The notes: a model not told the origin generated them from the letters alone. 48,684 nt of DNA from a virus (IMGVR_UViG_2923302340_000001), one strand, 5' to 3'; numbered from the stretch's first letter, positions 1-48,684 are shown. Translations and numbers: made by a program.

Positions 1-1435
1 CACAACAGCGCAGAAAAAAGGGAAGAATCCATTCGAAGCTGCAATGCATTCTGTCATGAAAATGACTAAGAACGGAGATCAGAAGTTACTTGGTGAGCTA
101 TTTGGCGATATGCAGGTTCAGAACTTTGTTCGTCCGATGATTCAAAACTGGAAGGAATACCAGAGAATCAAAGCAACATCTCTTGGAGCTGGAAGTGCTG
201 TTATTGACCGCGATTTTGCCAACATAACGAAAGATAATGCGGAGCGATTGAAACAATTACGTATTCAGGCTAGCAATGCATCATTAAGTTTTGGTCAGGC
301 CTTGCAACCTGCTTTGAATGCCGCGCTTAGTGTTTTGGTTCCGCTGATTACAAAAATTAGTGAATTTGTAGCTAACAACCCCAATTTTGTGTCTCAGATA
401 GTGATGGCGGCAGGTGCGTTTCTAACCATGAAAAGTGTGGTTATAGCGTGTAGGGTAGCTATGCTGGCTTTATCTGTAGCGACAAAGCTAACACCCTTCG
501 GGTGGATTCAGATGGCTATATCTGCGCTGGTTGCCGCAGGAATATTGCTCTATCAGAACTGGGATAAGATCAGAGATTATGCTGTCAGAGTTTGGCCTTC
601 TGTTAAGGAATATACAGTTAAATCGTTTGAGGCTATAAAAAACTTTATCTTAAACTTTGATCTCAATGGATGGATTATATCTATGTTTGGTAAAGCATGG
701 GATTATCTTTCCAACATAAACTGGAGTTCGGCAGGAGTAAGAATTTACAGTACATTAATTAGTGCTTTTAAATGGATGTCTCCGCTTCCGTTCTTAATTA
801 AAGCATTTAAACTTACAACAAATTACCTTTCTGGCATTAACTGGAGCGAAACAGGAAAGAAAATCATAGATACACTGGTGTCTGTTTTTATGCGTTTTTC
901 GCCAGTTGGACTATTTATAAGAGCATTCCAATCTGTAACGGCTTATTTATCTGGAATAAACTGGAGTGAGTCAGGTGCAAAAATAATTGAGACGTTAATC
1001 ACTGGGATAAAATCAAAAGCAAATGCTTTAATTAATGAAGTGAAAGGCGTTTTTTCTTCTGTACGTGAGTATTTACCGTTCTCTGACGCGAAAAAAGGTC
1101 CATTCTCACAGCTAACAAAGTCAGGTGGTGCAATAATGACTACTCTGGCATCAGGTGTTAGCAGGAATAACAGCTTACAGAATGCAATAGCAACCAAGTT
1201 CGGGCAATCAAATTTATCACCTCACGGGATATCTGCCGCCGGGACTTCTGGACCTCGCCAGAACGTTAACGCTGTGACTGGTGGAATAACCTATTCACCT
1301 GTAATCAATCTTCCGGCTGGTTCACCAAAGGAAACTGAGGCGGCAGCTAAAAGAGCATTAGATGCGGGATATTCTGATTTTGAGAAGAAATTGAGTGCTC
1401 ATATGTTCCAACAACGGAGATTAAGTTTTGGATGA
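1..1435 (+). CDS. tail tape-measure protein, C-terminal part (5' partial; continues in frame from 47327..48684 across the window boundary)
   Basis: Frame open from nt 2; hydrophobic segment and repeated ...YLSGINWSE(S/T)G... motifs typical of tape-measure C-termini; lies between tail chaperone and baseplate genes. Confidence 0.75.
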   Translation, partial: TTAQKKGKNPFEAAMHSVMKMTKNGDQKLLGELFGDMQVQNFVRPMIQNWKEYQRIKATSLGAGSAVIDRDFANITKDNAERLKQLRIQASNASLSFGQALQPALNAALSVLVPLITKISEFVANNPNFVSQIVMAAGAFLTMKSVVIACRVAMLALSVATKLTPFGWIQMAISALVAAGILLYQNWDKIRDYAVRVWPSVKEYTVKSFEAIKNFILNFDLNGWIISMFGKAWDYLSNINWSSAGVRIYSTLISAFKWMSPLPFLIKAFKLTTNYLSGINWSETGKKIIDTLVSVFMRFSPVGLFIRAFQSVTAYLSGINWSESGAKIIETLITGIKSKANALINEVKGVFSSVREYLPFSDAKKGPFSQLTKSGGAIMTTLASGVSRNNSLQNAIATKFGQSNLSPHGISAAGTSGPRQNVNAVTGGITYSPVINLPAGSPKETEAAAKRALDAGYSDFEKKLSAHMFQQRRLSFG

Positions 1436-1646
1436 TTATAGAACGGTTCAAGGGGACTCATGGGATAGTATCGCGTTAAAGTTGTATGGTAATGAGTACC
1501 TGTCTTATCTTCTTATTGATGCTAATACTGAGCACCGCTTTACGGTGCTTTTTTCTGCGGGAATTATTCTTAAAGTTCCTGATGCTCCGGTTATGCCAAT
1601 ATCAGTAAACAATTTGCCTCCGTGGAGACGCAATAGTGTTACGTAA
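1428..1646 (+). CDS. small tail protein, LysM-like (P2 gpX-like)
   Basis: 72-aa ORF overlapping tape-measure stop; size and position match gpX of P2-like tails; family by recollection. Confidence 0.45.
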   Translation: MDDYRTVQGDSWDSIALKLYGNEYLSYLLIDANTEHRFTVLFSAGIILKVPDAPVMPISVNNLPPWRRNSVT

Positions 1647-2637
1647 AACGCTTTTTGATGTTGTATATCAGAATGTAAATATTACCGCTCATATGTCACC
1701 TGATGTTTTGTCAATGTCTTATACAGATAATGAAGATGGTCAGGTCGATGATATTTCTATTATATTAAAAAATGATGATGGGAAATGGTCTGGAGACTGG
1801 ACACCTAAAAAGGGTGATTTTATTGATTTGAGCTTTAAGCCTATAAATCAAATCGTCCTTGAGTGTGGGAAATTCCAGGTGGATGGCATAACTTGCTCTG
1901 GACCACCTTCTGTTGTTGAGGTGACTGCTGTTTCTGTTCCTGTTTCATCAGGCATTAGACGTGATTTAAAAAGTAATGCATGGGAAAAAACAACTCTTAA
2001 AGATATAGCGACTTCTATAGCTAAATTAGCTAACCTTGAACTGTTGTTTCTTATTGATGGTGATAGTAATCCATATTATGCGCGTGAAGATCAAATGGAG
2101 GAAAGCGATTTAAAATTTCTCCATCGACTTTGCCAGGATGAAGGGGTGTCGTTAAAGGTCACTGATAGCCAATTAATAATATTTGCTCAAGAGATGTTTG
2201 AGCAAAAAGATCCTATCGCTACGCTTACGTTAGGTATTGATGAGATAATCAGATATAGCTTTAGCACACAATCTACAGATTTGTATAAAAGTTGCACGTG
2301 CAAATATCGCGTACCTAAAAAAAGAAAGTCGCTTTCGTATACTTGGGTAGATCCATCCGTAGAAGAAGGGGCGAATCTTAAGATAAGAAAACTGGTAGCT
2401 AATTTAGATGAAGCAAAACGTAAGGCAAAGGCTGCTTTGCGGCTTAAAAATAGATATCAAAATACCGGATCTTTAGTTTTGGTTGGAGACACCAGATTGG
2501 TAGCTGGTGTAACTATAAATCTGGACGGATTCGGTTCATTTTCTGGAAAATATCTTATATCGAAAGCTGTGCATTCAATTGGGGCTAGTGGTTATACCAC
2601 CTCGATTGATGTCCGAAGAGTAATTAATGGGTATTAA
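1636..2637 (+). CDS. tail protein D-like (P2 gpD / baseplate hub family)
   Basis: 333 aa directly after tape measure and gpX-like gene; C-terminal region resembles gpD-type tail proteins. Confidence 0.6.
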   Translation: MLRKTLFDVVYQNVNITAHMSPDVLSMSYTDNEDGQVDDISIILKNDDGKWSGDWTPKKGDFIDLSFKPINQIVLECGKFQVDGITCSGPPSVVEVTAVSVPVSSGIRRDLKSNAWEKTTLKDIATSIAKLANLELLFLIDGDSNPYYAREDQMEESDLKFLHRLCQDEGVSLKVTDSQLIIFAQEMFEQKDPIATLTLGIDEIIRYSFSTQSTDLYKSCTCKYRVPKKRKSLSYTWVDPSVEEGANLKIRKLVANLDEAKRKAKAALRLKNRYQNTGSLVLVGDTRLVAGVTINLDGFGSFSGKYLISKAVHSIGASGYTTSIDVRRVINGY

Positions 2638-2639
2638 TT

Positions 2640-3260
2640 ATGAATGATTTAGAAACATTATTACGTCAGACTATAAGAGTTGGCGTTGTTTCTGATATTG
2701 ATGATGGTGATGTTACAGCAAGAGTTACTTTCGATGATCAGGATAACGTCACTTCGGCAAAGTTATCAGTTATTGTGAAAAATACAGATAAGAATGCTGA
2801 TTACTGGATGCCAGATATTGGTGAGCAAGTTTTGTGTATCTTTCATCCCGCAGGGCCGCAACAAGGTTTTATTCTTGGTAGTTTTTATGATGAAACACAG
2901 AAGCCGCCATCTAATACTGTTAATAAACGCGTAATTAGATTTAATAACGGAACTCGTATTGAGATAGACAGAGAATCTAATTTACTCCTTGTTGATGCTG
3001 TCGGAGATGTAACCGTGAAGGCTACAGGAACCGTAACTATTGATGCTCCAGAAACCATCATTACCGGAAATGCTACAGTTGAAGGATTACTAACCTTCAA
3101 AGGTGGAATGAAAGGATCTTCTGCTGGAGGTGTTGCAGCTACAATTTCTGGGAATGTTAAGGTTGTTGGTGGTGATATAGATGTTGATGGGATTAAATCT
3201 AAAGGCCACCATCACACAGCTCAGGGGGAATACGCTCCGACAACGGAGGCTCAGGCATGA
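2640..3260 (+). CDS. baseplate assembly protein V-like (central spike)
   Basis: 206 aa with Gly/Val-rich beta-repeat C-terminus; position upstream of gpW/J/I-like genes. Confidence 0.6.
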   Translation: MNDLETLLRQTIRVGVVSDIDDGDVTARVTFDDQDNVTSAKLSVIVKNTDKNADYWMPDIGEQVLCIFHPAGPQQGFILGSFYDETQKPPSNTVNKRVIRFNNGTRIEIDRESNLLLVDAVGDVTVKATGTVTIDAPETIITGNATVEGLLTFKGGMKGSSAGGVAATISGNVKVVGGDIDVDGIKSKGHHHTAQGEYAPTTEAQA

Positions 3261-3724
3261 TTGTGGGTATGCTTGGTACAATGCCTTTTGTTGCCTCATC
3301 AATAGTAGTGAATACGTTCAACAATTTTAAAAGGACGTCAAAGCGTCGTGTAGCGCGCCATGATGTTATTGGGCTTAAACCTGTTCTGGAGGATATAGGT
3401 CCAGATCTGGATGAAGTTAGTTTTAATATGCGGTTGGATACAACACTTGGCATTGTTCCATTGGCTACGCTTTCATTACTTAGGACGATGCAATCAATTC
3501 AGGAAGTAAATCCTGTTGTAATTGGTATTCAGTATTTTGGTAATTTTATAATTACAGATATAGAGGAATCATGGACTTATTTCGGTCCAACTGGGAATCC
3601 GCGAGTGATTATCGTCGGCATTAAATTACAGGAAGTCGGACAGACCTCTCTGAAAGAAGCATTAGTTGATATTGCTGGCAATATAGAGTCAAAAACTAGA
3701 AGTGCGTTAGGTAAATTATTATGA
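3257..3724 (+). CDS. baseplate/tail protein, family not recognised
   Basis: 155-aa ORF with overlapping stop/start on both sides inside the baseplate operon. Confidence 0.3.
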   Translation: MIVGMLGTMPFVASSIVVNTFNNFKRTSKRRVARHDVIGLKPVLEDIGPDLDEVSFNMRLDTTLGIVPLATLSLLRTMQSIQEVNPVVIGIQYFGNFIITDIEESWTYFGPTGNPRVIIVGIKLQEVGQTSLKEALVDIAGNIESKTRSALGKLL

Positions 3725-4041
3725 ATAATACGTTTACCATATTATCACCTTCTTACTCGATTGATTGGTCGCCCAAAACAGTTGTAGAAGAAGTTTTGCA
3801 AAATGTCTCTACTATTATTAACACTCAGATTGGCACTGTACCATATGCCAGAAAATTAGGAGTTAATTCAAGTCTTGTTGATAGCCCCAGTCCAATTTTT
3901 ATTGCTACAGCAACACGAGAAATAATTCAAAAAATTAGTGAGTTTGAGCCTAGAGCGATTATCCATTCTGTTACTTTTGAAAGAACGGACGTTTCTGATG
4001 GTTTTATTAGGCCAAAACTTGTGATAGGAGTTAGAGAATGA
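3721..4041 (+). CDS. baseplate wedge protein (gpW/gp25-like)
   Basis: 106 aa immediately upstream of the J-like gene; size and position typical. Confidence 0.5.
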   Translation: MNNTFTILSPSYSIDWSPKTVVEEVLQNVSTIINTQIGTVPYARKLGVNSSLVDSPSPIFIATATREIIQKISEFEPRAIIHSVTFERTDVSDGFIRPKLVIGVRE

Positions 4042-5162
4042 CGTTGCCGCGTGGTGGTTTGCCAGATATTACTTTCGCAGATTCTAACCCGACTGATATA
4101 ACAACTCGTTCAATCAGGGCTTTTGAGAGTATAACAGGTGAAACATTAGCACCTGCTGATCCACGTAGATTATTCATCTTATCATTGTGTGAGATTATTA
4201 TACAGCAAAGAAAAGCTATCGATTTTTCTGCAAAACAAAACCTTCTTACATATGGTGAAGGTGAATATCTCGACCATATAGGCTATCTGACGGATACGCC
4301 TAGGCTGGAAGCTCAATCTGCCTTGACTACATTTGAGTTTAATCTGTCAACAAAATTATCGGGGATATATACAATACCTGCTGGCACTCAAGTTTCAACT
4401 GGAAATGGTGTTATTTTCCAAACAGATATTTTGTTGGAAATACCTGCTGGGAAAACAGTTGGTACAGTCTCAGGATATGCTGTTATACCTGGTTTATCTG
4501 GGAATGGCTTTTTACCAGGGCAAATAAATGAGTTGGTGACTCCGTTGCCGTATGTTTCCAGCGTAAGGAATGTAACAACATCTAATTCTGGTGCTGATAC
4601 GGAGTCAGATGATAATTATGCTGAAAGAATAAAACTGTCGCCGGAAAAACTGTCTACAGCAGGGCCGGAGGATTCTTATAAATATTGGACAAGAACAGCC
4701 AATCAGAATATAAAAGATGTGAATGTATATACACCATCGCCCGGAATTGTAGAAATCCGTTCTTTGTTAGAGAACGGAGATATACCTTCTGATGAACTAT
4801 TAGAGCAGATAAATAGCGTTCTCTCTGCAACTAATATTCGACCATTCACAGATAAAGTTCTTGTTAAGAAACCAGAGAGCATTGAATACGATATAATAAT
4901 TAAATACTGGATTAACTCATCGGACAAAAACAGAACAACTTTAATTCAAAGTGAGGTTGAGAAAGCTATTGATGAGTATAAACAATGGCAACGTTCGGTT
5001 ATGGGAAGAGATATAAATCCAGATGAAATTATTCAACGTTTAAAAAATGCTGGGGCTAAAAGATTAGAAATATCAAGTCCTGTTTTTACTGTGGTTGGAG
5101 AGACACAGGTCGCCAGAGAGAGAAATATAAATTGCCAGTATGCGGGGTTAGAGGATGGCTGA
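4038..5162 (+). CDS. baseplate protein J-like
   Basis: 374 aa; 4-nt overlaps with neighbours; conserved position before gpI-like and fibre genes. Confidence 0.65.
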   Translation: MTLPRGGLPDITFADSNPTDITTRSIRAFESITGETLAPADPRRLFILSLCEIIIQQRKAIDFSAKQNLLTYGEGEYLDHIGYLTDTPRLEAQSALTTFEFNLSTKLSGIYTIPAGTQVSTGNGVIFQTDILLEIPAGKTVGTVSGYAVIPGLSGNGFLPGQINELVTPLPYVSSVRNVTTSNSGADTESDDNYAERIKLSPEKLSTAGPEDSYKYWTRTANQNIKDVNVYTPSPGIVEIRSLLENGDIPSDELLEQINSVLSATNIRPFTDKVLVKKPESIEYDIIIKYWINSSDKNRTTLIQSEVEKAIDEYKQWQRSVMGRDINPDEIIQRLKNAGAKRLEISSPVFTVVGETQVARERNINCQYAGLEDG

Positions 5163-5736
5163 TATCTTTAATGTTAGCTTGTTGGATGTTTTACCTCCTA
5201 ACTTAGCTAGCGATCCCAACGTGATAGCTATGTCGAAAGCTATCGATGATGAACTACAAGCAATTAACAATTTAATATATAAGACAGAAATATATAGCGT
5301 TGTTGATAACCTGGATTCAGTTGTCCTCGATCATTTAGCTTGGCAATGGAATGCTGATACATGGAGGGATAGTTGGCCTGTATCGTTAAAGCGTTCTGTT
5401 TTCAAATCAATAATACGAACAAAGCGAATAAAGGGTACAAGGGCAGCGGTTGAAGATGTAGTAAATAGCTTGGGGGGAGAGGTAAACATAATAGAATGGT
5501 TTGAAACATCACCACCTGGCGAACCATATACAGCCTCAATTGTTGCTTCGATTAACTCTTTTGATGGTGCCGTTCCTTCGAAAGAGATGTTGGAAGATAC
5601 GTTAAGAAGTATCAAGAGCGCAAAGTCGGCAAGAACATTATTTACATTTTCGCAAGCAGCCAATGTTTCTGGTGGTGTCGGTATTGTTGGTGCTTGTCAG
5701 CCTGTGTCTTATATACGATTAATTGGCGAGTGTTAA
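5155..5736 (+). CDS. tail protein I-like (P2 gpI family)
   Basis: 193 aa; N-terminus ...LLDVLPPNLASDPNVIAMSKAIDDEL... resembles gpI family. Confidence 0.55.
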   Translation: MADIFNVSLLDVLPPNLASDPNVIAMSKAIDDELQAINNLIYKTEIYSVVDNLDSVVLDHLAWQWNADTWRDSWPVSLKRSVFKSIIRTKRIKGTRAAVEDVVNSLGGEVNIIEWFETSPPGEPYTASIVASINSFDGAVPSKEMLEDTLRSIKSAKSARTLFTFSQAANVSGGVGIVGACQPVSYIRLIGEC

Positions 5737-5766: not shown

Positions 5767-7656
5767 GTGAGTAAATTATTATTTACGATGACTGACGCCG
5801 GGCGTCAGGAGTTGGTTAATGCCAACAAAACAGGAACAAATAAAGTTGAGATTGTTTCTGTTGGTTTAGGTGGTAGATATTATGTCACGTCAACCTCACA
5901 AACAAATATAACAAACGAAATAAAACGACTTACCACAATAGGTGGCAAAGTTGTTTCCCCTGATACAATTCATGTAACGGCGAAGGATGATAGTAAAGAT
6001 GAGTATGTTGTCCATACAATAGGATTGTATACAAATAAGGGAACGTTGTTTGCTGTATACTCGCAAGAACAAGCAATAATAAATAAAGCATCATCTACTA
6101 TTGCTTTAATATCAAGTGACATAGCAATCAAGACTCTTGATACTAAAAATATTATATTTGGTGATATTGAGTTTATTAATCCTCCCGCGACCGAAACTGT
6201 TGTTGGGGTTGCAAGATTTGCTAATGAACAAGAAATTGATGCAGGTACAGATGATTCCCTTGCTGTTTCAGCAAAGCGGCTTAAGCAAGCCATTGTGAAA
6301 CATGAGCAATCACGTAATCATCCTGATGCAACTTTAACCTCAAAAGGCTTTGTTCAACTTAGCAGCGCCACCAATAGCACGTCTGAAACGCTTGCTGCGA
6401 CGCCTAAGGCTGTTAAGGCAGCATATGACCTGGCTAACGCTAAATACACCGCACAGGACGCTACCACTGCGCGGAAAGGGATTGTTCAGCTCAGTAGTGC
6501 CACCAATAGCACGTCTGAAAAGCTAGCAGCAACACCAAAGGCTGTTAAGGAAGCGTATGATCTTGCGGCCGGAAAGGCTCCTTCCAATCACACGCATTCG
6601 TGGGATCAGATTACAAATGTGCCTGTAGCTTCACTGACAGTAAGAGGAATCACTCAGCTTAGTAGCGCCACCAATAGCACGTCTGAAAAGCTAGCAGCAA
6701 CACCAAAGGCTGTTAAGGAAGCGTATGATCTTGCGGCCGGAAAGGCTCCTTCCAATCACACGCATTCGTGGGATCAGATTACAAATGTGCCTGTAGCTTC
6801 ACTGACAGTAAGAGGAATCACTCAGCTTAGTAGCGCCACCAACAGCACGTCTGAAACTCTGGCTGCGACACCGAAAGCTGTTAAGGTGGTAATGGATGAA
6901 ACAAAAAAGAAAGCCCCCCTCAACAGTCCGGCTCTGACTGGAACGCCAACAACGCCAACAGCACCAAATGGGACTAATAATACTCAGATCGCAAGCACAG
7001 CTTTCGTTATGGCTGCGATTTCCGCACTTGTAGACTCGTCACCTGACGCACTGAATACGCTGAACGAGCTGGCCGCCGCGCTTGGTAATGATCCAAATTT
7101 TGCAACCACCATGACTAACGCGCTTGCGGGTAAGCAACCGAAGGATGCCACCCTGACGGCGCTGGCAGGACTTGCTACAGCAGCAGATAAACTCCCTTAT
7201 TTTACAGGGGCAGATCGTGCCGCGTTAACCGCACTGACAAGTGTTGGACGTGCCATTCTTAGTAAGCCCAGCACACAGGGGGTTCTTGATTACCTTGGTT
7301 TACGAGAAGCGGCAAAACGGGATGTAGGGACAGGAGCAAATCAGATACCTGATATGAGTTTATTCGCGTCAATTAATACCGTAACGGCTGCTGCGCAAAA
7401 ATTTCCGTCTGGATTAATTTTACAGTGTGGCCAGTTGAATGGTGCCCCGAATGTATCTTCAACATACGGGATGAGGTTCCCGATGACGTTCTCAAGAGTC
7501 ATTGCTGTCGTAGTTACATTGAACGTTACTGGCGCGGCAGGGCAGCCGACTGTATCGGCGACAAATGTCCAGAACACTGGATTTGATATTACAGTGTCGC
7601 CCGGTTCAGGATATGGTTCATCTGCTGATGCGTATTACATTGCAATGGGATATTAA
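5767..7656 (+). CDS. tail fibre protein (constant N-terminal part plus currently expressed C-terminal cassette)
   Basis: GTG start; 629 aa; repeated ...[26 protein letters not shown]... fibre repeats; hix-like crossover site inside the coding region at 7283..7308. Confidence 0.8.
6487..6822 (+). repeat. near-perfect tandem duplication (2 x 168 bp) inside tail-fibre gene
   Basis: 6487..6654 and 6655..6822 differ at 2 positions; flanked by diverged copies of the same 56-codon unit. Confidence 0.9.
7283..7308 (+). other. candidate recombinase crossover site (hix/gix-like) inside fibre gene
   Basis: TTCTTGATTACC TT GGTTTACGAGAA: 26 bp with imperfect dyad, close to Hin hixL consensus as recalled. 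Confidence 0.5.
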
Positions 7657-7660
7657 CGAA

Positions 7661-8080
7661 ATGTCATATTTTTATTCTGCATCGACAAACGGATTTTATT
7701 CGACTGAATTTCACGGCACCAATATTCCTGATGATGCAGTGGAAATCTCGGAATCAGAGTGGAAAACACTGATTAATTCACAGAGTGTCACAAAAATGAT
7801 TACCTGTGGTGAGGACGGTCACCCTGTCATTGTTGACCGTCCTTCTCCAACACCAGAACAATTAGCCTTAATAAATGATGAAAAGAAATCTGCACTGATA
7901 GCAGAAGCAACGAATGTAATAGCGCCGCTTCAGGATGCGGTTGATTTAGGTATGGCAACAAATGATGAAACGAAACTGTTACTGGCATGGAAAAAATATC
8001 GCGTGCTATTGATGCGTATTAATACTTCAACAGCACTCGATATTGAATGGCCTACGCCTCCGGCAGTTCAGGCCAGATGA
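7661..8080 (+). CDS. tail fibre assembly chaperone
   Basis: ATG 5 nt after fibre stop; C-terminus ...[28 protein letters not shown] typical of fibre assembly proteins (track start 7565 overlaps fibre gene). Confidence 0.7.
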
Positions 8081-8654
8081 CATCCGGCGCTGTGCTGGTA
8101 TCTGTTGCCGTCACCGCGTCAATGTAATCCAGCACAGCGTTAAGGCGGGTTGTTTCTGCCTGCGTCAGCTTTCGCCCAGCCTGTAATTTCAGTTGAATCA
8201 GACTAATGGAAGCCATTGCAGCATCAATCAGTGACTGGCGCTGTGCTTCTGCCGCTTCTACTGCGGCACCGTGTTGTGCCTCAACATCCGTCACCCATTT
8301 CTCACCATCCCATTTATCGTATGGCGTTAACGGGGCGATAGTGGTTGTATTTTCAGGATAGTCGCCCGGTGCAGTTATTTCTTTGGCGTCACCCGTTTCG
8401 GTGTTATAGACGATTTCACCACGATGGTCTGGCACATATTCCCATGAATTTAAATCCACAGAACGGCAGATTGCATAACCAGCCTTATGTATGCCGGGGG
8501 CATCTAAACAAGAATATGCCGGAATACCAACACCTACCGCAAGATATTCAGTTGATGCGGAAATATATTCCTTTGTCTCACTGTCATAGTTGTAAACGAT
8601 GATGTTTCCTTCCTGTACGGCAATAAGTTCATTATTCAATATCGCGCTATTCAT
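8052..8654 (-). CDS. tail fibre assembly chaperone, alternative cassette
   Basis: 200 aa; C-terminus ...[24 protein letters not shown]; convergent with 7661..8080. Confidence 0.7.
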
Positions 8655-9104
8655 TATGCAGCTCTCACAATATAGTTAAATGCAATATTTCTCGGACGGG
8701 TTTCACGCCCACCAGGAATTTGAAAAGCATTAGCGGTTGTAGATCCGCCTTCCTGATTAATTCCTGTTGTATAAATACCACTCACACCATTTTGCAATGC
8801 AAATACTGTTGCGGTTCCAGGCCCACCACCGGGCCCAAAATACTTAAGTTCGAACTTTTTAATATCATCACTCTGAATATTCAATAAAGCACGTCCTGTA
8901 TCAATGCCGCGTCCATCATCCCAGCCACGAATAAACTCACCGCGTAAATCAGGAAGTTTTCCTGACGGGTATGCTTTGGCAAGAGTTGGATATTTCACCT
9001 TATCAAAGGCAGCACCGTTGCATTTCAGCCAGCCCGTTGGAGGGGTTGCGGAGGGCCACGGAACAGGTACACCAACAGGCAGCGCCGAACCTTCCCCAAA
9101 CCAA
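8654..9104 (-). CDS. promoterless alternative tail-fibre C-terminal cassette B
   Basis: Shares a 232-bp direct repeat (8881..9112 vs 9367..9599) including the crossover-like site with cassette A; no ATG; motif KYPTLAKAYPSGKLPDLRGEFIRGWDDGRGID; ends ...RPRNIAFNYIVRAA. Confidence 0.45.
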
Positions 9105-9116
9105 CGTTTTTATGCA
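9091..9116 (-). other. candidate crossover site (cassette B)
   Basis: Plus strand CTTCCCCAAACC AA CGTTTTTATGCA; minus strand carries the TTGGTTT core in inverted orientation relative to 7283..7308; overlaps stop of cassette A. Confidence 0.4.
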
Positions 9117-9640
9117 GCCCTCACGATAAAGTTAAATGCAATATTTCGTGGACGGGTTTCACTCCCGCCAGTATTACCGATACTCCCTCGTGAATGAAGT
9201 GTCGGTGATGGAATCAGAGTTCCTCCGGCATCGGCAGCATCAAGCCCCCGGCCTTGCGTATATGCTCTTCTGAAGATTGTCGCCAGTTCCCATTCCTCTT
9301 TTGAATCATACCCATCGTTGGCAACAACAATATGGCGGTGTTTTTCCAGCATCCCAGTCTGAATGCTCAATAAAGCACGTCCTGCATCAATACCACGCCC
9401 GTCATCCCAGCCACGAATAAACTCACCGCGTAAATCAGGAAGTTTTCCTGACGGGTATGCTTTGGCAAGAGTTGGATATTTCACCTTATCAAAGGCAGCA
9501 CCGTTGCATTTCAGCCAGCCCGTTGGAGGGGTTGCGGAGGGCCACGGAACAGGTACACCAACAGGCAGCGCCGAACCTTCCCCCAAACCAACGTTTTTAA
9601 CTTCGTGAACTGAGCTATCTAATAGCATTTTCACTAACAT
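9110..9640 (-). CDS. alternative tail-fibre C-terminal cassette A
   Basis: 176-aa ORF; codons downstream of the crossover-like site are in the frame needed for fusion to the fibre constant part (...DYL | GLGEGSALPVGVPVPW...). Confidence 0.5.
   Translation of the reverse strand: MLVKMLLDSSVHEVKNVGLGEGSALPVGVPVPWPSATPPTGWLKCNGAAFDKVKYPTLAKAYPSGKLPDLRGEFIRGWDDGRGIDAGRALLSIQTGMLEKHRHIVVANDGYDSKEEWELATIFRRAYTQGRGLDAADAGGTLIPSPTLHSRGSIGNTGGSETRPRNIAFNFIVRAA
9578..9603 (-). other. candidate crossover site (cassette A)
   Basis: Plus strand TTCCCCCAAACC AA CGTTTTTAACTT; minus strand AAGTTAAAAACG TT GGTTTGGGGGAA; 45 bp from invertase start. Confidence 0.45.
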
Positions 9641-9647
9641 AAACGGG

Positions 9648-10217
9648 ATGCTTTTTATGCAAATTGGCTATATTCGCGTATCAACAAATGACCAGAATAC
9701 AGATTTACAACGTAATGCTCTGAACTGTGCAGGATGTGAGCTGATTTTTGAGGATAAAATCAGTGGAACGAAGTCAGCCAGACCGGGATTGAAAAAACTG
9801 CTCAGAACGTTATCAGAAGGAGACACGCTGGTTGTCTGGAAGCTGGACAGGTTGGGTAGAAGCATGAAACACCTGATCACTCTTATTGAGGAACTACGGG
9901 AAAAAGGTGTTAATTTCCGTAGTCTGACGGACAGCATTGATACATCAACCCCTATGGGGCGTTTCTTTTTTCACGTCATGGGGGCTTTAGCAGAAATGGA
10001 GCGTGAATTAATTGTTGAGAGAACATTGGCTGGACTGGCAGCAGCTCGCGCACAGGGCCGCATTGGTGGGCGCCGCCCGAAGCTGACAAAAGAACAGCAT
10101 GAGCAAATAGCAAGGCTGATTAAAAACGGTCACGAGAGGAAACAACTGGCGATCATTTACGACATTGGTATATCAACGATTTATCGCTATCACCCTGTAG
10201 GAAGTGATTCAGCTTAA
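9648..10217 (+). CDS. DNA invertase, Hin/Gin/Cin/Pin-type serine recombinase
   Basis: N-terminus (M)QIGYIRVSTNDQNTDLQRNAL, ...TLVVWKLDRLGRSMKHL..., ...GRFFFHVMGALAEMERELIVERT..., C-terminal HTH; alternative ATG at 9657. Confidence 0.9.
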   Translation: MLFMQIGYIRVSTNDQNTDLQRNALNCAGCELIFEDKISGTKSARPGLKKLLRTLSEGDTLVVWKLDRLGRSMKHLITLIEELREKGVNFRSLTDSIDTSTPMGRFFFHVMGALAEMERELIVERTLAGLAAARAQGRIGGRRPKLTKEQHEQIARLIKNGHERKQLAIIYDIGISTIYRYHPVGSDSA

Positions 10218-10435: not shown

Positions 10436-10475
10436 TACGATTGTGGGTGTCTGGTTGGAAACTGACCAGATATGG

Positions 10476-12903: not shown

Positions 12904-12913
12904 AGGATTGAGC

Positions 12914-18357: not shown

Positions 18358-18362
18358 CGATT

Positions 18363-19568: not shown

Positions 19569-19574
19569 GTGTTT

Positions 19575-39045: not shown

Positions 39046-39285
39046 ATGAACAATGAAGCATTTTCTCTGACTGAAGCCAGAGAGATGTTATCTGTCTGGC
39101 GGGAAGCATATCGCGCTATTGCTATTGGCGGTCAGTCATATAAATTTGGTACGCGGCAGTTAACTCGTGCGGATTTATCAGAAGTCAGAAAAGAGATGGA
39201 TTACTGGCGTAATGAAGTAGAAAGATTATCAGCAGGTATACGCCGAGGCCCACGAATTAAACGAGTGGTGATAAGAGATTTATGA
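39046..39285 (+). CDS. head-tail joining protein (gpW-like)
   Basis: 79 aa between terminase and portal; ...RRGPR... C-terminus. Confidence 0.45.
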   Translation: MNNEAFSLTEAREMLSVWREAYRAIAIGGQSYKFGTRQLTRADLSEVRKEMDYWRNEVERLSAGIRRGPRIKRVVIRDL

Positions 39286-40856
39286 ATATTCTTGATCGAG
39301 TTATTGCGCCGTTTTCACCTCAGAGGGCATTAAATCGAGCTTTGGCAAGAAAACGGTTAGAAGCACTTGAAGGTATTAATAACCTTGGATATTCACGTCA
39401 TGGTGCAAGCACTCATAAAAAATCATTAAGGGGTTGGTTTAGTAAAGCTGGTTCTCCTGATGATGATATTGTTAAAAATATAGATAAATTGCGTGAGCGT
39501 TCTCGTGATCTCTTCATGGGAAACCCGCTATCGGTTGGCGCAATAAAAACTATCAGGACAAACGTTGTTGGTTCCGGTTTAAAACTAAATGCGAACATTG
39601 ATGCCGATTTCTTGGGGATGACGCAGGAAGAAGCGCGAGCATGGGAAAAACATGTTGAGCGTGAGTTTAGATTATGGGCTGATTCTCCAAATTGTGATGC
39701 ATCAAGAATGTGTACTTTTGGACAATTGCAATCATTGGTTCAAATATCTGCGTTAACATCTGGCGATATATTTGCTGCGCTACCAGTTATTAAGCGTAAG
39801 GGTGTTATATATGATTTGTGCGTCTATTTAATTGAAGGTGATCGTGTTTGCAATCCAGAGGATCGTTTTATACCAAATCTTTACGGTGGCGTAGAGGTTG
39901 GTGAATTTAGCGAGCCTGTGGCGTACTGGGTTGCAAAACATCACCCAGCCGGGACTTCTGGTTTTGTAACCCGCAAGTGGGAACGTATTCCCGCATATGG
40001 GAGTAAAACAGGAAGAAGAAATATTCTGCATGTCATGCAGGATTTTGAAAGGCCTGGGCAACGCCGTGGCGTTCCTGTCCTTGCTCCTGTAATTGAAGCA
40101 TTGAAGCAGTTAGGACGATACACCGATGCTGAATTGGTTGCTGCGGTTGTGTCAGGGATGTTTACTGTCTTTATTAAAACAGACGCTCCTGATGGGCCAG
40201 TCGGTGAATCGGGTATCCCTCAGTACGAGCAGATCGATAACCATGATGATAACACCCAAGAAATGGGGAATGGCTCCATAGTAAGTTTGGGTGAAGGTGA
40301 GTCGATAGATACAGCAAATCCCGGGCGACCAAATACGGCATTTGATGGTTTTGTTGTCGCCATATGCCGTCAAATTGGGGCTGCTTTAGAACTCCCTTAC
40401 GAACTCTTGGTAAAGCATTTTACAGCAAGTTATAGCGCAAGCAGGGCCGCATTACTTGAAGCCTGGAAAATGTTCCGTATGCGACGTGACTGGATGGTTC
40501 AGTCATTTTGCCAACCGATCTATGAGGAATGGTTGGCCGAAGCCGTTGCTAAAGGTCGTGTTATTGCCCCTGGTTTTTTTTATGGGCCTGAATATCGCGC
40601 TGCATGGAGTGGCGCTCAATGGTATGGCCCATCACAAGGCCAATTAGATCCCCTTAAAGAAGTCAAAGCTGCAAAACTGCGTGTTGAGGAAACATTCTCT
40701 ACCCGTGAAAAGGAAGCGGCTGAAATGTCAGGTCTTAACTGGGAAGAAACCGCACAAATCTGTGGCAGAGAAGAGAATGCTCGCCGTGAGTTGGGGCTTA
40801 TTACACCTCCTGTTTCTGAGGTAAATGAACAAAATATGGAGACTGATGATGCCTAA
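39282..40856 (+). CDS. portal protein (lambda gpB family)
   Basis: 524 aa; conserved position; ...YSASRAALLEAWKMF... resembles lambda-type portals. Confidence 0.8.
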   Translation: MNILDRVIAPFSPQRALNRALARKRLEALEGINNLGYSRHGASTHKKSLRGWFSKAGSPDDDIVKNIDKLRERSRDLFMGNPLSVGAIKTIRTNVVGSGLKLNANIDADFLGMTQEEARAWEKHVEREFRLWADSPNCDASRMCTFGQLQSLVQISALTSGDIFAALPVIKRKGVIYDLCVYLIEGDRVCNPEDRFIPNLYGGVEVGEFSEPVAYWVAKHHPAGTSGFVTRKWERIPAYGSKTGRRNILHVMQDFERPGQRRGVPVLAPVIEALKQLGRYTDAELVAAVVSGMFTVFIKTDAPDGPVGESGIPQYEQIDNHDDNTQEMGNGSIVSLGEGESIDTANPGRPNTAFDGFVVAICRQIGAALELPYELLVKHFTASYSASRAALLEAWKMFRMRRDWMVQSFCQPIYEEWLAEAVAKGRVIAPGFFYGPEYRAAWSGAQWYGPSQGQLDPLKEVKAAKLRVEETFSTREKEAAEMSGLNWEETAQICGREENARRELGLITPPVSEVNEQNMETDDA

Positions 40857-41913
40857 TTGGTGGGAAATAAAAAATAGCACGGGTGAAGATGACTCTCCGG
40901 CTGAACTTTTAATTTACGGGTATATTGGTGAATTTGATGAGGTTTCTTCTTCTGACATAGTTAATAAATTAAAGGATATTTCATCAAATACTATCAGCAT
41001 AAAAATTAATAGTTATGGTGGTTCTGTTTTTACTGCTCAAGCTATTCTTTCATCATTAAAGCGTCATAAGGCTAATATTACTGTTTATATTGATGGTATT
41101 GCTGCATCGGCTGCAACCATTATTGCAATGGCAGGTGATAAAGTTGTTATCCCATCTAATGCTATGATGATGATCCATAATCCGTGGACATTTGCTGCTG
41201 GTGATGCGGATGAACTACGTGATATTGCTGAGATGATGGATAAGGTACGAGATAGTATTTTATCTGCATATAAGGAGAAAACAGGGCTTTCTGAGGATAA
41301 ATTAATTGAACTAATGGATCAGGAAACATGGCTAAATGCAGAAGAGGCTGTAGAGCTTGGATTTGCTGACGAAGTTGAAAAACCAATGCGCTTATCCGCT
41401 TCTATAAAGGAAGGGATGCTTTCGCTCAATGGAATAACTTTTGAAGCATCAAGGTTTTCAAAATTACCTGATTTGCTCGCAAAGTTGCCACAAAATAAAA
41501 ATGAATTATCTACTGAATTAAATGAACAAAATGAGGACGATGTTGTGACTCTTGATGAATTAAAAAATAAACATCCAGAATTATACAATCAGGTTTTTAA
41601 TGCTGGTAAAGACGAGGGGGTTAAATCAGAACGCGAGCGCATTGAAACAATCGAGAATAGCGTAATTCCAGGTCATGACGACCTGGTTAAGAATGCAAAA
41701 TTCAAAACGGGAATTTCTGCGGCTGAACTTGCTTTGGAAATTATGAATGCAGAGCGAGCGCGTAACAAAAACTTTCTTAATCAACGGCAAGAAGACGCAA
41801 ATGAGGTGAATAATTCAGTTGATGTTAATCAACCAGAAAACAACGGCGATAAACAAGCTGAAGTAGTAAAAAATGTTATTGGGTCAGTATTTAAAAATCG
41901 CGATAAAAATTAA
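40825..41913 (+). CDS. head maturation protease (ClpP/S49-like) with scaffold-like C-terminal part
   Basis: ...INSYGGSVFTAQAI...IDGIAASAATIIAMAGDKVV... Confidence 0.7.
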   Translation: MNKIWRLMMPNWWEIKNSTGEDDSPAELLIYGYIGEFDEVSSSDIVNKLKDISSNTISIKINSYGGSVFTAQAILSSLKRHKANITVYIDGIAASAATIIAMAGDKVVIPSNAMMMIHNPWTFAAGDADELRDIAEMMDKVRDSILSAYKEKTGLSEDKLIELMDQETWLNAEEAVELGFADEVEKPMRLSASIKEGMLSLNGITFEASRFSKLPDLLAKLPQNKNELSTELNEQNEDDVVTLDELKNKHPELYNQVFNAGKDEGVKSERERIETIENSVIPGHDDLVKNAKFKTGISAAELALEIMNAERARNKNFLNQRQEDANEVNNSVDVNQPENNGDKQAEVVKNVIGSVFKNRDKN

Positions 41914-41922
41914 GGTGAGTTT

Positions 41923-42306
41923 ATGCGAGAGTCTTTTTCATTTGAACCAGATAATCTGATTATTTCTGGTGGTATGCCAGCAATTACAACAAGTATTAAA
42001 CTTGCCAGCGGTAAAGTAAATCGAGGTGAGTTGCTTGCTTTTGTCAGTATTGATCAGACAACAAATGTTGTCACTGTGGCACCAATAAATCTCTCTGGTG
42101 AGGGGGTGGCAAAAGAACCGTATTGTATCGCTCAACACAGTATTGATGCGACTGATTCAGCGCAAGTTGGAACAGCATGGCTGACCGGAATGTTCAATGC
42201 ACACGCAGTTATCCTTCCTGAATCAGCAAAGATTGCCGATGTATATCTGGCTTGTCGGAAGGTTGGGATATTCCTTAATACCGCACAACAAAATCCATCT
42301 GCATAA
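41923..42306 (+). CDS. head decoration protein (gpD-like), tentative
   Basis: 127 aa between protease and major capsid genes. Confidence 0.35.
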   Translation: MRESFSFEPDNLIISGGMPAITTSIKLASGKVNRGELLAFVSIDQTTNVVTVAPINLSGEGVAKEPYCIAQHSIDATDSAQVGTAWLTGMFNAHAVILPESAKIADVYLACRKVGIFLNTAQQNPSA

Positions 42307-42326
42307 TATAAAGAGGTCGTATTTTT

Positions 42327-43370
42327 ATGCCGAATATTGATATTTTTGAACGACGTACAATGCTTGAGCCTGTTATTCAGAATTTCAAGGCTCGTCGTTT
42401 TCTTCTTCGTACCTTTTTTCCTGGTGTTCAGACCTTTAATACAAAGAAAGTTGATCTGGATTTTGTTCGCGGTGGCCGTACTATGGCTCCGTTTGTTGGT
42501 AAAGGTTTTGGCTCAAAAACCGTTGAGCGACGCGGCTTTGTAACGAGAACTCTGGAGCCACCACTTGTTGCACCTGATTTGGTAACAACAGCCGAGCTGC
42601 TTTTAAACAGGCTTCCGGGTGAGAATATTTACAACGCAAAATCGCCAGCAGAACGAGCCGCCGAGCAATTAGGTAAAGATTTGCTTGAGCTTGATGAAAT
42701 GGTTAACCGCCGTGAAGAATGGATGTGTGCACAAGTCTTGTTTACGGGGCAGGTTGATATTGTTGGTGAAGGAGTGGATGACACAGTTTATTTTTGGCCT
42801 GAAGAGGAAGGAGATAAACCATATCTTGAACTGACAGGTGATGATTTATGGAGTGCAGCAAACTCAGATCCGTTAGTAAATGTTCGCAACTGGAAACGTC
42901 GGGTATCACTAACTTCAGGTTTTACACCTCGTGTTGCCGTAATGGGCGCAAAAGTTGTTGATGCTTTCGTTAAAAATGAAGCAGTAACTAAATATCTTGA
43001 TAATCGCCGAAAAGAGCTTGGGTATATTGAGCCTAAGGAGTTAGAAGAAGGCGTAACTCATTATGGCAATCTTGAAGGTGTCGATTTTTATGGTTACGAC
43101 GAACTTATTCGCAATGATAAAACAGGAAAACCAGAACCATTAGTACCGGAAGATAAGATCCTCTTTGGCTCTCCTGGTCGAGGAACGATGCTGTATGGTG
43201 CTGTAGAGCTTGTAGATGACGCCGAAAAGACTCTAACGATTGTTGAGTCACCACGAGTTCCAGACACCTGGGTAACTCGTAAGCCGGCTGGCCGTTATGT
43301 TGCCATGAAGTCATCTCCACTGCCTAATCCTGGTGTGGCTGATGCCTATCTGGTGGCTAAGGTGGTTTAA
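42327..43370 (+). CDS. major capsid protein (lambda gpE-like)
   Basis: 347 aa; N-terminal ...RRFLLRTFFPG..., ...RTLEPP... resemble gpE family. Confidence 0.8.
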   Translation: MPNIDIFERRTMLEPVIQNFKARRFLLRTFFPGVQTFNTKKVDLDFVRGGRTMAPFVGKGFGSKTVERRGFVTRTLEPPLVAPDLVTTAELLLNRLPGENIYNAKSPAERAAEQLGKDLLELDEMVNRREEWMCAQVLFTGQVDIVGEGVDDTVYFWPEEEGDKPYLELTGDDLWSAANSDPLVNVRNWKRRVSLTSGFTPRVAVMGAKVVDAFVKNEAVTKYLDNRRKELGYIEPKELEEGVTHYGNLEGVDFYGYDELIRNDKTGKPEPLVPEDKILFGSPGRGTMLYGAVELVDDAEKTLTIVESPRVPDTWVTRKPAGRYVAMKSSPLPNPGVADAYLVAKVV

Positions 43371-43763
43371 ATGGCCAGACTGATTAAAAACATTGATACG
43401 ATAAGCCACGGCTCGCTAAAAGCGGGCCGTTTGCTTAATGGGCTAATGGATAACTCCAGAATTGCCGAACTGATTGCGTCAGGACATGCTATTGCCACCG
43501 AAGAGGATGGTGATTTGGCATCGGCTGGGGGCTATGATGCTGCTAAGTTAGCTTTTGAGCATGGATACGCATCTGCTGTTAATGATGCTGTGGACGCGGG
43601 GTTGATTACGCGAACGGAGGCGGGTAGCTGTGTATTCGAGGTTGAGTTTGAGGATGATGGCGGCAATGAGGAAACGGTTGCTGATGATTCATCTGAATCT
43701 GTAGCTACTTCTGATACCAGTAATGCGAAAAAATCAACGCAAAAAAAAGGTAATAAGAAGTAA
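43371..43763 (+). CDS. hypothetical protein with acidic C-terminus
   Basis: 130 aa; directly after capsid gene. Confidence 0.25.
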   Translation: MARLIKNIDTISHGSLKAGRLLNGLMDNSRIAELIASGHAIATEEDGDLASAGGYDAAKLAFEHGYASAVNDAVDAGLITRTEAGSCVFEVEFEDDGGNEETVADDSSESVATSDTSNAKKSTQKKGNKK

Positions 43764-44107
43764 TGAACTCCTTCAAAGAGGTTATAGCGCAAGATATTTC
43801 TGCAATATTCCTCAATGAAAAAGAGTTTGCCGATACATATAACATAGACGGCAAGGATATCCTTGCCGTTATTGATACAGACCTTATTCATGAGCGGAAT
43901 AAACGCTCATATGCTGAGTTTGCAGAGGGAATAAATCAGGGGCAAATAATATTATTTGTTTCAAGAAAAGATTTTCCTGTTCTCCCTGTCAAAGACCAGT
44001 CAATGAAAATTAACGGTAAAAATTATATTGTTAATGAAGTATCAGATAATGTTGGTGTATTGGAAATAACTCTCACTGTTAATACTAACAGAGGAATGCC
44101 GATTTGA
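43763..44107 (+). CDS. hypothetical head-tail connector/completion protein
   Basis: 114 aa; position between head and sheath genes. Confidence 0.3.
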   Translation: MNSFKEVIAQDISAIFLNEKEFADTYNIDGKDILAVIDTDLIHERNKRSYAEFAEGINQGQIILFVSRKDFPVLPVKDQSMKINGKNYIVNEVSDNVGVLEITLTVNTNRGMPI

Positions 44108-44589
44108 TTAATCTTTTGATAGATGCAATAAAAAATCGGTTGGAACATGAGGTTTTCCATGATTTATTAGTGCAGGGACCTCCTTATGATGAAACAGACA
44201 GCGATATTAAATTGTTTGTTCCAACAATATTTAAAGGGTACTTGCCTCCTAAATCACAACCATCTCCAGATAAACCGCCAGAATTTCCTCATGTGATTAT
44301 CAGGCCCACGGAAGGAGGAATGCAGCCTGAAACGAATGAAGTTAAGGTTAAGTTTCTTCTAGGTGGTTTTTGTGAGGACCATACTGGATATGAATGGGTA
44401 ATGGCTCTTCTTGAAAGGATGATGTTTCATTTTCAGGAGAAGCCTTTACTTGAAGAGAAATTTCTCTTTCAGGGCGATATCAGATGGCGAATGTTTGATG
44501 ATCAACCGTATCCATATTGGATAACGGAAGCAACTGGAACGTGGATAGTATTAAAGCCTCAGAATATTCAGTCTCAGGAGTTTATCTAA
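44104..44589 (+). CDS. hypothetical tail completion/neck protein
   Basis: 161 aa; position only. Confidence 0.3.
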   Translation: MINLLIDAIKNRLEHEVFHDLLVQGPPYDETDSDIKLFVPTIFKGYLPPKSQPSPDKPPEFPHVIIRPTEGGMQPETNEVKVKFLLGGFCEDHTGYEWVMALLERMMFHFQEKPLLEEKFLFQGDIRWRMFDDQPYPYWITEATGTWIVLKPQNIQSQEFI

Positions 44590-44880
44590 ATGGCTAATAA
44601 GAAAAGTAGTAAAGAAGATATAGAAAAGAAGGAAGATGTTGCTCAAACATTTGTATATATAGGACCAACAATCCCTCAACTCTCAATTTTGAAGCGTAAA
44701 CTATTTAAGAATGGCTTATCTCCAGAGTGTAAAAAATTAATATCACATATTCCTGGTGCAAAGTGTTTGTTTGTGGCAACCAGTGATTTTGCAGATGCAG
44801 AGAAAAGACTTTCTGATAAAACCAGTGTCGAGTATGTAATGTACTCTAGAGTTTCTTCTTCTATCATGGAGATTAAATAA
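44590..44880 (+). CDS. hypothetical protein
   Basis: 96 aa; position only. Confidence 0.25.
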   Translation: MANKKSSKEDIEKKEDVAQTFVYIGPTIPQLSILKRKLFKNGLSPECKKLISHIPGAKCLFVATSDFADAEKRLSDKTSVEYVMYSRVSSSIMEIK

Positions 44881-47172: not shown

Positions 47173-47321
47173 GTTTTGATGAGCAAAAACCTATTGATAA
47201 GCAAATAATGAGGGCCGCGAGTTCTCTATCTCAATCATCTCAATCAACACCTATATCCTACTGGCTTTCGCTTCGGTTGAGGCGAATCGTCGCATGGATT
47301 GACGTGTTTAATGAGGATTAA
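46891..47321 (+). CDS. tail assembly chaperone, predicted -1 frameshift fusion product
   Basis: Heptamer T TTT TTG at 47157..47163; the -1 frame stays open to 47321, ending 6 nt before tape-measure ATG. Confidence 0.45.
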
Positions 47322-47326
47322 TACTA

Positions 47327-48684
47327 ATGGCCAGCAATAAGAACTTTAAGCTGGCTTTTGAAATTGGCGGCAAAGTTGCCGCCTCTCTCCCCAAAAGTTT
47401 TACTACAGCTAATCAGGCTGTTGCTAAATTAAATGCCGAGCTTGCTGGATTAACGAAAGAACATGGGGAAATTCAAAAGCTACAATCTGTAAAAGTAAAG
47501 GTTGGACAGACTGCCCTCGAATATCATAAAGCTGCCGCTCGCGTTGAAGAGTTACAGAAGCAAATAAAAAACACGGCCAATCCAACCAGAGCGATGCTTC
47601 GTGACTTTGAGAAGGCAAAAACACATTCATCGAATTTACGAGCATCACTACGTTCTCAGCGTGAAGAACTGGCCGCTTTAAAGTCTGCCTATCAGGGAGC
47701 TGATACATCTGCCAGAGCTTTGGCCTCAAGAGAGAAAGAGCTTAAAGCCAGCATTGATCGTAATCGTGAGGCTCAGGCCCGTAGCGTTGAGCAGGTTAAC
47801 CGCTACAGAACGGCTTTGGCTTTAGCCAGAGCAAATGTTCAGCAAGTGAAAAAACAGCAGGAGGAACTTAACCGGGCATTAGAAAAACAACGTATTGATA
47901 AAATTAACAGCTATAAAAATGCGTTGGCTGAAGCACGGAAAAATGTTCTTGCAGTAAAACGTGCTCAGGAGGAGTTAAACCGCGCGTTGGAAAGGCAGCG
48001 TGAATTGAAGCGAGAGCATCTTGGTGAGGCAAAGAGTCAACTTGTAAGGACAGGATTACAAACTGGTGCTGTAGCGGCTGGTGCATTTGCTGCTGCTTAT
48101 AATGCAGCAAATTTTAATCGTGAAAACAAAATGATTGGTCTTACGGCAGATATGAAGCCGGAGGAAGTTCAGGCGATGGGGCAAGCGATGCTTGTTACCG
48201 GGGCGGCTACCAACCAGTTTGCATCTGATATTCAGGCCGCTCAGGGTTTTCTTGTCGCTGCTGGGCAGGATTATAAAGAGGCTCAGGCGAATCTACTAAC
48301 TATTGGGCGAACAGCTACAGCTACTGGCTCTGATATCCTCGATGTCTCGAAAGCATCATTTACATTAAGTGACTCATTGAAGATTGATCCATCTCAAATG
48401 AAGTCTGCAATGGGGATTCTGGTTCAGGCAGGGAAAGAGGGAAACTTTGAATTTAAAGATATGGCCAAAAATCTTCCTGTGCTTGGTGCTCAGTTCCAGG
48501 CATTAAAAATGGGAGGTAAAGAAGCCGCCGCGACGATGGGGGCAGCTTTGCAGATAGCTCGCAAAGGTGCTGCAACTTCGGATGAGGCTGCTAATAATAT
48601 GAACAACTTTTTGGCGAAAATACTTTCCCCTGAAACACTAAAAAAAGCAAAGAAAAATTTCGGTGTAGATTTATATAAAATTGT
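47327..48684 (+). CDS. tail tape-measure protein, N-terminal part (3' partial; continues at nt 1)
   Basis: ATG 47327; coiled-coil-rich N-terminus and Ala/Gly-rich region; last codon GT- completed by nt 1 (c) giving an in-frame join with 2..1435. Confidence 0.8.
   Translation, partial: MASNKNFKLAFEIGGKVAASLPKSFTTANQAVAKLNAELAGLTKEHGEIQKLQSVKVKVGQTALEYHKAAARVEELQKQIKNTANPTRAMLRDFEKAKTHSSNLRASLRSQREELAALKSAYQGADTSARALASREKELKASIDRNREAQARSVEQVNRYRTALALARANVQQVKKQQEELNRALEKQRIDKINSYKNALAEARKNVLAVKRAQEELNRALERQRELKREHLGEAKSQLVRTGLQTGAVAAGAFAAAYNAANFNRENKMIGLTADMKPEEVQAMGQAMLVTGAATNQFASDIQAAQGFLVAAGQDYKEAQANLLTIGRTATATGSDILDVSKASFTLSDSLKIDPSQMKSAMGILVQAGKEGNFEFKDMAKNLPVLGAQFQALKMGGKEAAATMGAALQIARKGAATSDEAANNMNNFLAKILSPETLKKAKKNFGVDLYKI

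Follow-up and report, generated by a model that had tools for sequence, protein, structure and literature searches.

The stretch of DNA analysed here (the window; IMGVR_UViG_2923302340_000001, 48,684 nucleotides (nt)) carries the genes of a temperate virus with a contractile tail (myovirus) of Escherichia coli together with those of a plasmid. We observed that the two ends of the window fall within a single gene, that of the tail tape measure, which is present in two parts:

47327..48684, + strand: tape-measure gene, 5' part (amino acids (aa) 1-452 and the first two bases of codon 453); contiguous with 1-1435 in all relatives
1..1435, + strand: tape-measure gene, 3' part (third base of codon 453 to the stop); PF10145 spans the join

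From the ATG at 47327 the frame was open to 48684 (1358 nt, or 452 codons plus "gt"). Codon 453, GTC, is completed by the first nucleotide of the window ("c"), and the frame continues from nt 2 to a TGA at 1433-1435. The joined open reading frame (ORF) is 2793 nt long, encodes 930 aa and has no internal stops; in both other frames, stops are frequent across the join. PF10145 (phage minor tail/tape measure) matched aa 288-488 (E = 1.5e-20) and thus straddles the join at aa 453. An earlier note on this DNA had read the last two bases, 48683..48684, as a codon split between the window ends, and the joined frame bears this out. No terminal direct repeat of 10-399 nt was found at the window ends, so that there is neither assembly overlap nor a missing base.

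We assembled a junction construct from the last 1500 nt of the window followed by its first 1500 nt. It aligned as one ungapped 3000-nt block to the circular plasmid pTD225C4_47 (NZ_CP035864.1; 99.93%) and to the Yersinia phage vB_YpM_39 (99.17%). It also matched three IMG/VR contigs at 98.9-99.2%, and a fourth until the end of that contig. In pTD225C4_47 and vB_YpM_39 the tape-measure gene is uninterrupted and annotated at exactly 2793 nt, and window positions 48684 and 1 are the adjacent positions 33716 and 33717 of pTD225C4_47. The window was collinear with both over the full circle (85% of the window covered by pTD225C4_47, 87% by vB_YpM_39).

GenBank record CP028194.1 (assembly GCA_003030245.1) is 48,684 bp long and has a coordinate system identical to that of the window; its range 6168-27310 (21,143 nt) was 100% identical to the window. 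Because size and coordinates are equal, the window is the whole record, with nothing past either end, and the unrelated flanking DNA that would have spoken against a circle was not found. Seamless ends, junction alignments and a source record of the same size agree with the earlier proposal of a complete circular replicon linearised in the tape-measure gene. A circle opened at an arbitrary point in codon 453 accounts for the two gene halves at opposite window ends.

We are highly confident that the window is a complete, circular, plasmid-borne temperate myovirus (phage-plasmid) of E. coli, CP028194.1, opened arbitrarily in the tape-measure gene. By phage-plasmid we mean a temperate phage kept outside the chromosome, following Pfeifer et al. 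2021 (PMC7969092). The virion and lysis genes are complete, an IncFII RepA and a ParA are encoded, and the element forms its own replicon and is not integrated. The plasmid-related features are:

10466..10600, - strand: candidate antisense RNA to the repA leader (minimum free energy -68.7 kcal/mol, z = -9.0)
10603..11451, + strand: RepA, plasmid replication initiator of the IncFII RepA family (PF02387, E = 2e-43, 149 bits against a cutoff of 22.9)
12908..13560, + strand: toxin-antitoxin pair, a Gp49/HigB-like toxin and a helix-turn-helix (HTH) antitoxin (PF05973, E = 6e-23; PF01381)
18087..18385, + strand: ryfA-family RNA with a 40-aa hydrophobic ORF (Rfam RF00126, 135 bits against a gathering score of 80)
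18608..19680, - strand: partition locus, whole
18608-18856, - strand: 82-aa gene downstream of parA (no family matches)
18869-18897 and 19569-19680: AT-rich repeats TTATATAA(A/T)TCTATAAA flanking the partition genes (repeat family D1)
18900-19553, - strand: ParA ATPase (PF01656, PF10609, PF09140)

The RepA homologue in a relative is named "plasmid replication initiator RepA" by the Prokaryotic Genome Annotation Pipeline (PGAP). Among 50,697 phage records, RepA matched only three Yersinia phages. The antisense strand of the repA leader forms a long hairpin (20-bp stem) followed by a GC-rich stem terminator and a U-run. Rfam gave no CopA match in the repA leader, even at E <= 1; we infer that 10466-10600 (- strand) is a candidate CopA-like copy-number control RNA. 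Likewise, the 82-aa protein would be the centromere-binding partner and the AT-rich repeats the putative centromere. The toxin homologue in a phage relative is annotated "higB2". The ryfA RNA is full-length, with a peptide beginning MKKYYMCIFIVVTGALF... and a strong terminator at its end (ORF and terminator read from the sequence), and the locus may be a candidate type I toxin with a plasmid stability function.

Independent gene calls with Pfam over 6168-27310 revealed no integrase, transposase or protelomerase. Every ORF of at least 250 aa was assigned to a family other than integrase; those of at least 600 aa were the large terminase subunit (TerL), the fibre and the tape measure only. No match to a tyrosine recombinase family, such as that of Cre, was found among the ORFs of at least 250 aa or the called genes. 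The sole recombinase is a Hin/Gin-type invertase that serves the fibre switch, in line with the earlier statement that no integrase is present, and PGAP lists just one "recombinase family protein" in pTD225C4_47, the invertase.

Megablast with the 3' end of the window (tail region) returned 58 plasmid records, nearly all from E. coli and ~47-52 kb in size, and 5 phage records. A near-identical 12.7-kb structural module was present in 71 of 5,426 complete E. coli genomes (~1.3%), including that of the reference strain ATCC 25922. It occupied 91 places in these genomes, 90 on plasmids and one on a chromosome. Together with the source record equal to the window and the lack of an integrase, this supports the extrachromosomal prophage suggested earlier. 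No record identical to the window was found in the collections searched. Over the accessory half (5000-29900) the best relative covers 70% at 96-97% identity, and this partial coverage makes the window a further combination of alleles in a group already known. One relative, NZ_CP032086.1 (94,204 bp), has two copies of the tail region and may be a dimer or cointegrate.

The ~48-kb phage-like plasmids of E. coli, such as pTD225C4_47 (47,458 bp) and the ATCC 25922 plasmid NZ_CP009073.1 (48,488 bp), resemble the window in size, gene order and circular map. Their structural half is 98.5-99.9% identical to that of the window, and RepA, ParA, the CI-like repressor, the lysis cassette and the invertase are held in common. 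They differ in the mix of accessory alleles; the differences include the fibre tip and cassettes (7210-10250) and the stretches 13550-14036, 15448-16187, 25292-27312 and 31928-32508. The Yersinia phages vB_YpM_39, vB_YpM_41 and vB_YpM_44 (OR545053-55) aligned to 87% of the window at 95-99% identity over the full circle, and share RepA (98.6% aa identity), TerL (99.8% aa identity), tRNA-Met and the toxin-antitoxin pair. All three are complete circular genomes with a listed propagation host; vB_YpM_39 (OR545053.1) is 49,027 bp long. Unlike the window, they were deposited as phage genomes (propagation host Y. pestis EV76) with records that start beside the terminase genes and not in the tape measure, and their fibre tips and part of their accessory genes are different.

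The head and packaging genes lie upstream of the tail genes on the same strand:

35617..35628: candidate cos site GGTCATTCGAAC (12-nt offset between the ends of the virion-derived records vB_YpM_39 and vB_YpM_44)
36612-37172, + strand: small terminase subunit, TerS (phrog_57, E = 7e-42)
37178-39034, + strand: TerL (GpA_ATPase PF05876, E = 1e-76 to 7e-76; GpA_nuclease PF20454, E = 1e-84)
39046..43370, + strand: head module with a DUF6148 protein, lambda-family portal, ClpP-type prohead protease, gpD-like decoration candidate and gpE-type major capsid protein
43371..44880, + strand: four small head-tail connector or neck genes (phrog_5541; phrog_2551/82, head closure; phrog_2581; phrog_4089)

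Matches were strong for the portal (PF05136, E = 7e-101), the protease (PF00574, E = 4e-32) and the major capsid protein (PF03864, E = 1e-55). The decoration candidate matched PF02924 weakly (E = 0.002; 18.7 bits, below the 29.1-bit cutoff). The closest solved structures were 8k38, "Portal protein B" (533 aa), for the portal (E = 3e-41) and 7vi9, a 341-aa major capsid protein, for the capsid protein (E = 5e-17); we take both entries to be lambda proteins. With a gpA terminase, a lambda-family portal and a gpE-type capsid protein, the head is lambda-like, as had been noted.

The vB_YpM_39 record starts at window position 35617 and ends at 35616, and the vB_YpM_44 record starts at 35629 and ends at 35628. 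The 12 nt between them, GGTCATTCGAAC, lie ~400 nt upstream of a ParB-like gene, TerS and TerL. This offset is suggestive of a 12-nt cohesive end, one record having been opened at each nick, and such a candidate fits a gpA-type terminase. If cos at 35617-35628 is correct, the tape-measure break is unrelated to the physical ends of the phage.

Three proteins with a ParB_N domain are encoded near the packaging genes (32741-34737 and 36031-36621), one of them fused to a methyltransferase domain. For these three, PADLOC gave methyltransferase-type matches alone, two of them fitting the type II methyltransferase model over the N-terminal part of that model only; it gave zero matches on the other accessory genes. 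An MT-A70 methyltransferase is encoded separately at 30077-30664.

The tail genes run from the sheath through the window ends to the baseplate:

44880-46343, + strand: tail sheath (phrog_23, E = 6e-94; nearest structure the R-pyocin sheath 3j9q, E = 6e-15)
46360-46881, + strand: tail tube, FII-type (PF04985, E = 4e-44)
46891-47172, + strand: tail assembly chaperone, gpE-type (PF10109)
1428..5736, + strand: baseplate genes for tail X, gpD-type hub, gpV spike, a GpU-family protein, gpW/gp25, gpJ and gpI

The Pfam matches of the baseplate genes were PF05489, PF05954, PF04717 with PF18715, PF06995, PF04965, PF04865 and PF09684. A TTTTTTG slippery run was read from the sequence near 47150, close to the end of the chaperone gene, where the -1 frame is open to 47321; this extension would be the conserved chaperone frameshift of P2-type tails. 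In Mu the order is sheath, tube, chaperone, tape measure, X, D, V, W, J, I and fibre, and the families are common to P2 and Mu. The families here are of P2/Mu type and the order is Mu-like, so the contractile tail was correctly described as P2/Mu-like.

Downstream of the baseplate lies a host-range switch region, delimited by Pfam matches and gene calls:

5767..10217: host-range switch region, whole
5767-7656, + strand: fibre gene with four fibre repeats
7613-8080, + strand: fibre assembly gene
8052-8654, - strand: alternative fibre assembly gene
8654-9082 and 9110-9640, - strand: two alternative fibre C-terminal (tail-collar) cassettes
7285-7310, 9085-9110 and 9572-9597: candidate 26-bp crossover sites
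9657-10217, + strand: Hin/Gin-type serine invertase, 186-189 aa (Resolvase and HTH_7, E = 1e-51)

The crossover sites were assigned by motif and by eye, against the hix/gix consensus. One site, TTCTTGATTACCTTGGTTTACGAGAA, lies within the fibre gene, in the codons for LDYLGLRE at ~aa 507; two AAACCAACGTTT cores, oppositely oriented, lie at the starts of the alternative cassettes. These cassettes have a common 243-nt repeat (94% identity) and share a single alternative assembly gene. No long inverted repeats flanking the fibre segment were found. In the current orientation, the C-terminal domain of the fibre is Gp53-like. From this layout, the region is a three-site invertible switch that is predicted to alternate fibre tips.

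Lysis, immunity and regulatory features are:

16168..17737, - strand: P1-immI-like secondary immunity locus (Rfam RF01695, 84 bits, and RF01394, 70 bits, both above the gathering score; PF10543 and PF09669)
16168-17310, - strand: antirepressor-like protein of 380 aa (ORF6N and Rha)
17307-17498, - strand: 63-aa ORF
17552-17639, - strand: C4 antisense RNA
17664-17737, - strand: isrK RNA
20170..20832, - strand: CI-like repressor, 220 aa, with an N-terminal HTH_3 (PF01381, E = 5e-11)
20870..20986: two candidate operators ACCAC-N5-GTGGT (15-bp palindromes) between cI and the early genes; others at 10421, 17797 and 20113
27869..29399, + strand: lysis cassette with two holins, a GH108 endolysin with a peptidoglycan-binding domain and a 92-aa ORF (PF16931, PF05449, PF05838 with PF09374)
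29693..29768, + strand: tRNA-Met (CAT) (ARAGORN, Rfam)

With these genes, all the functions listed earlier were located: virion (terminase to fibre), lysis, immunity, replication and partition. The repressor gene is divergent from an early operon that starts at 21005, and Pfam did not detect a Peptidase_S24 domain in the repressor. Allowing up to one mismatch, we found 8 ACCAC-N5-GTGGT palindromes where 0.68 were expected; all 100 shuffles gave fewer. Four copies are perfect: 10421 (upstream of repA), 20113 (beside the parA operon), 20870 and 20972. These four are kept at equivalent positions in both relatives (one plasmid, one phage). The copy at 17797 has one mismatch and stands in front of the isrK/C4/antirepressor operon. 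This arrangement suggests that one repressor may control both lytic and plasmid functions through these sites.

The palindromes at 10421, 17797, 20113, 20870 and 20972 all lie in regulatory gaps. A P1/P7 immI-type locus occurs here on a non-P1 phage, alongside a CI-like repressor. The early region encodes a RecA-dependent nuclease of the P1 Ref family (22241-22645). The tRNA-Met gene is downstream of the lysis cassette and shared with the Yersinia phage relative.

We considered whether the record might instead represent virion DNA, either a linear genome with circular permutation or terminal redundancy or a circle that an assembler built from virion reads, and not a plasmid maintained in cells. 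Near-identical genomes were indeed deposited as phages (vB_YpM_39, vB_YpM_41 and vB_YpM_44), and from sequence alone a circle assembled from virion DNA is indistinguishable from a plasmid. However, the source is a CP-series record within a bacterial assembly, GCA_003030245.1, and the accession next to it, CP028192, is given as the origin of an E. coli flgM sequence. Genes for RepA, ParA and a toxin-antitoxin pair are present, and 70 complete E. coli genomes hold such elements as separate plasmid records. The gpA-type terminase and the 12-nt record-end offset moreover point to a cos site near 35.6 kb and not to permuted ends. We regard a virion genome as very improbable. Slightly more remote still is an integrated prophage, or one unit excised from a larger replicon (cointegrate or dimer), for which the single chromosomal place among 91 and the two copies in NZ_CP032086.1 could be cited. 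Against this, the source record is 48,684 bp, equal to the window, which contains neither host genes nor att-like terminal repeats; its ends meet in frame and do not overlap, and it encodes no integrase or transposase.

Some points nevertheless weigh against the reading as a plasmid-borne temperate phage. The phage activity of this copy (induction, infectivity) is predicted from its genes, and with no Peptidase_S24 domain detected in the repressor the induction route is uncertain. The cos site, antisense RNA, operators and centromere are things we infer. The topology flag of CP028194.1 could not be read, and in principle a unit-length record could be the trimmed monomer of a multimer, as the two-copy NZ_CP032086.1 illustrates. 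Production of infectious virions is indicated indirectly, the sole pointer being the 95-99% identical relatives deposited as phages with a propagation host.

Taken as a phage-plasmid, the element would behave as follows. During lysogeny it would replicate from RepA, probably throttled by the antisense RNA to the repA leader, and ParA with the small downstream protein would segregate it by acting on the AT-rich repeats. The Gp49/HigB-type toxin-antitoxin pair, and perhaps a ryfA-type toxin, would stabilise it. The repressor would hold off the early operon at the ACCAC-N5-GTGGT operators, and induction could proceed through the antirepressor under a C4-type antisense RNA, as in P1 immI. After induction, the gpA-type terminase would package DNA cut at a cos site near 35617-35628. 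The Hin/Gin-type invertase would switch the fibre tip among three alternatives.

The group to which the element belongs is well sampled and already in GenBank as plasmids and as phages; the identification is correct but ordinary. Phage-plasmids are an already known kind of element (PMC7969092), and the current understanding of them is unchanged, with modest room for descriptive work on this group. The 48.7-kb E. coli "plasmid" is a complete temperate phage; annotation and counts should treat it as a phage-plasmid, and the start of its record is without biological meaning. Its presence in ~1.3% of complete E. coli genomes, with recovery as phages on Yersinia pestis, bears on host range, transduction and plasmid typing.

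More tentatively, this enterobacterial lineage could be a phage-plasmid group not yet described as such, combining an X29-type virion, an IncFII-family replicon and a P1-immI-type switch, with a repressor that perhaps governs plasmid functions directly. We consider this doubtful. If true, one protein would couple the lysis-lysogeny decision to the copy number and segregation of the plasmid. A literature search found no paper naming or characterising the group. It is unnamed in the community descriptions of Pfeifer and colleagues, and these accessions are absent from the 2024 supplements. The paper depositing vB_EcoM-613R2 and vB_EcoM-473R2 mentions a ParB gene and makes no plasmid-prophage claim, and a paper on enterotoxigenic E. 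coli covers the P1 and SSU5 types. Two candidate connections were rejected: pSLy3 as a group name, which belongs to the ~100-kb SSU5 supergroup, and the "plasmid-like" Yersinia phage HQ103 as a group member, which is an unrelated 32-kb peduovirus.

Compared with better-known phages, the element resembles lambda in its gpA-family terminase, lambda-family portal and gpE-family capsid protein; the weakly matching gpD-like candidate and the candidate cos site upstream of the terminase genes may be further likenesses. Unlike lambda, it has a contractile and not a flexible tail, a ClpP-type protease, no integrase, and plasmid maintenance. Its tail order through the fibre and Tfa, followed by an inverted alternative set beside a Gin/Cin-type invertase, is that of Mu, P2 and P1, and a C4 antisense RNA upstream of the antirepressor is found as in P1/P7 immI. 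Unlike Mu it is without a transposase, and unlike P2 without the P2 integrase. It differs from P1 in having neither a Cre-type tyrosine recombinase nor the ~90-kb gene set, in its IncFII-family replicon and in being half the size. None of the 5 megablast matches in the phage collection was P1, and the C4/antirepressor locus was the only P1 likeness. In contrast to the N15-like linear phage-plasmids, the window has a circular map and no protelomerase.

Beyond the immediate relatives, the virion module is next-nearest to that of the Vibrio phages X29, phi 2, Rostov 7 and vB_VpaM_XM1. Their TerL proteins were 63-65% identical at the aa level, followed at ~40-46% by those of phages of Acinetobacter, Exiguobacterium, Paenibacillus, Faecalibacterium and Fusobacterium. 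The sheath had the same next-nearest phages (50-53%, then ~40-46%), at an equal distance from TerL. The Vibrio phages differ from the element in that they are without an IncFII-type RepA and show no DNA-level similarity by megablast. The description as a "mosaic" of a lambda-like head and a P2/Mu-like tail therefore stands at the level of protein families but not as a recent or element-specific hybrid, because the pairing is conserved in distant phages. The TerL-to-sheath module recurs with equal spacing in X29-like and Firmicutes phages, and the pairing is thus an old, conserved and widespread virion type.

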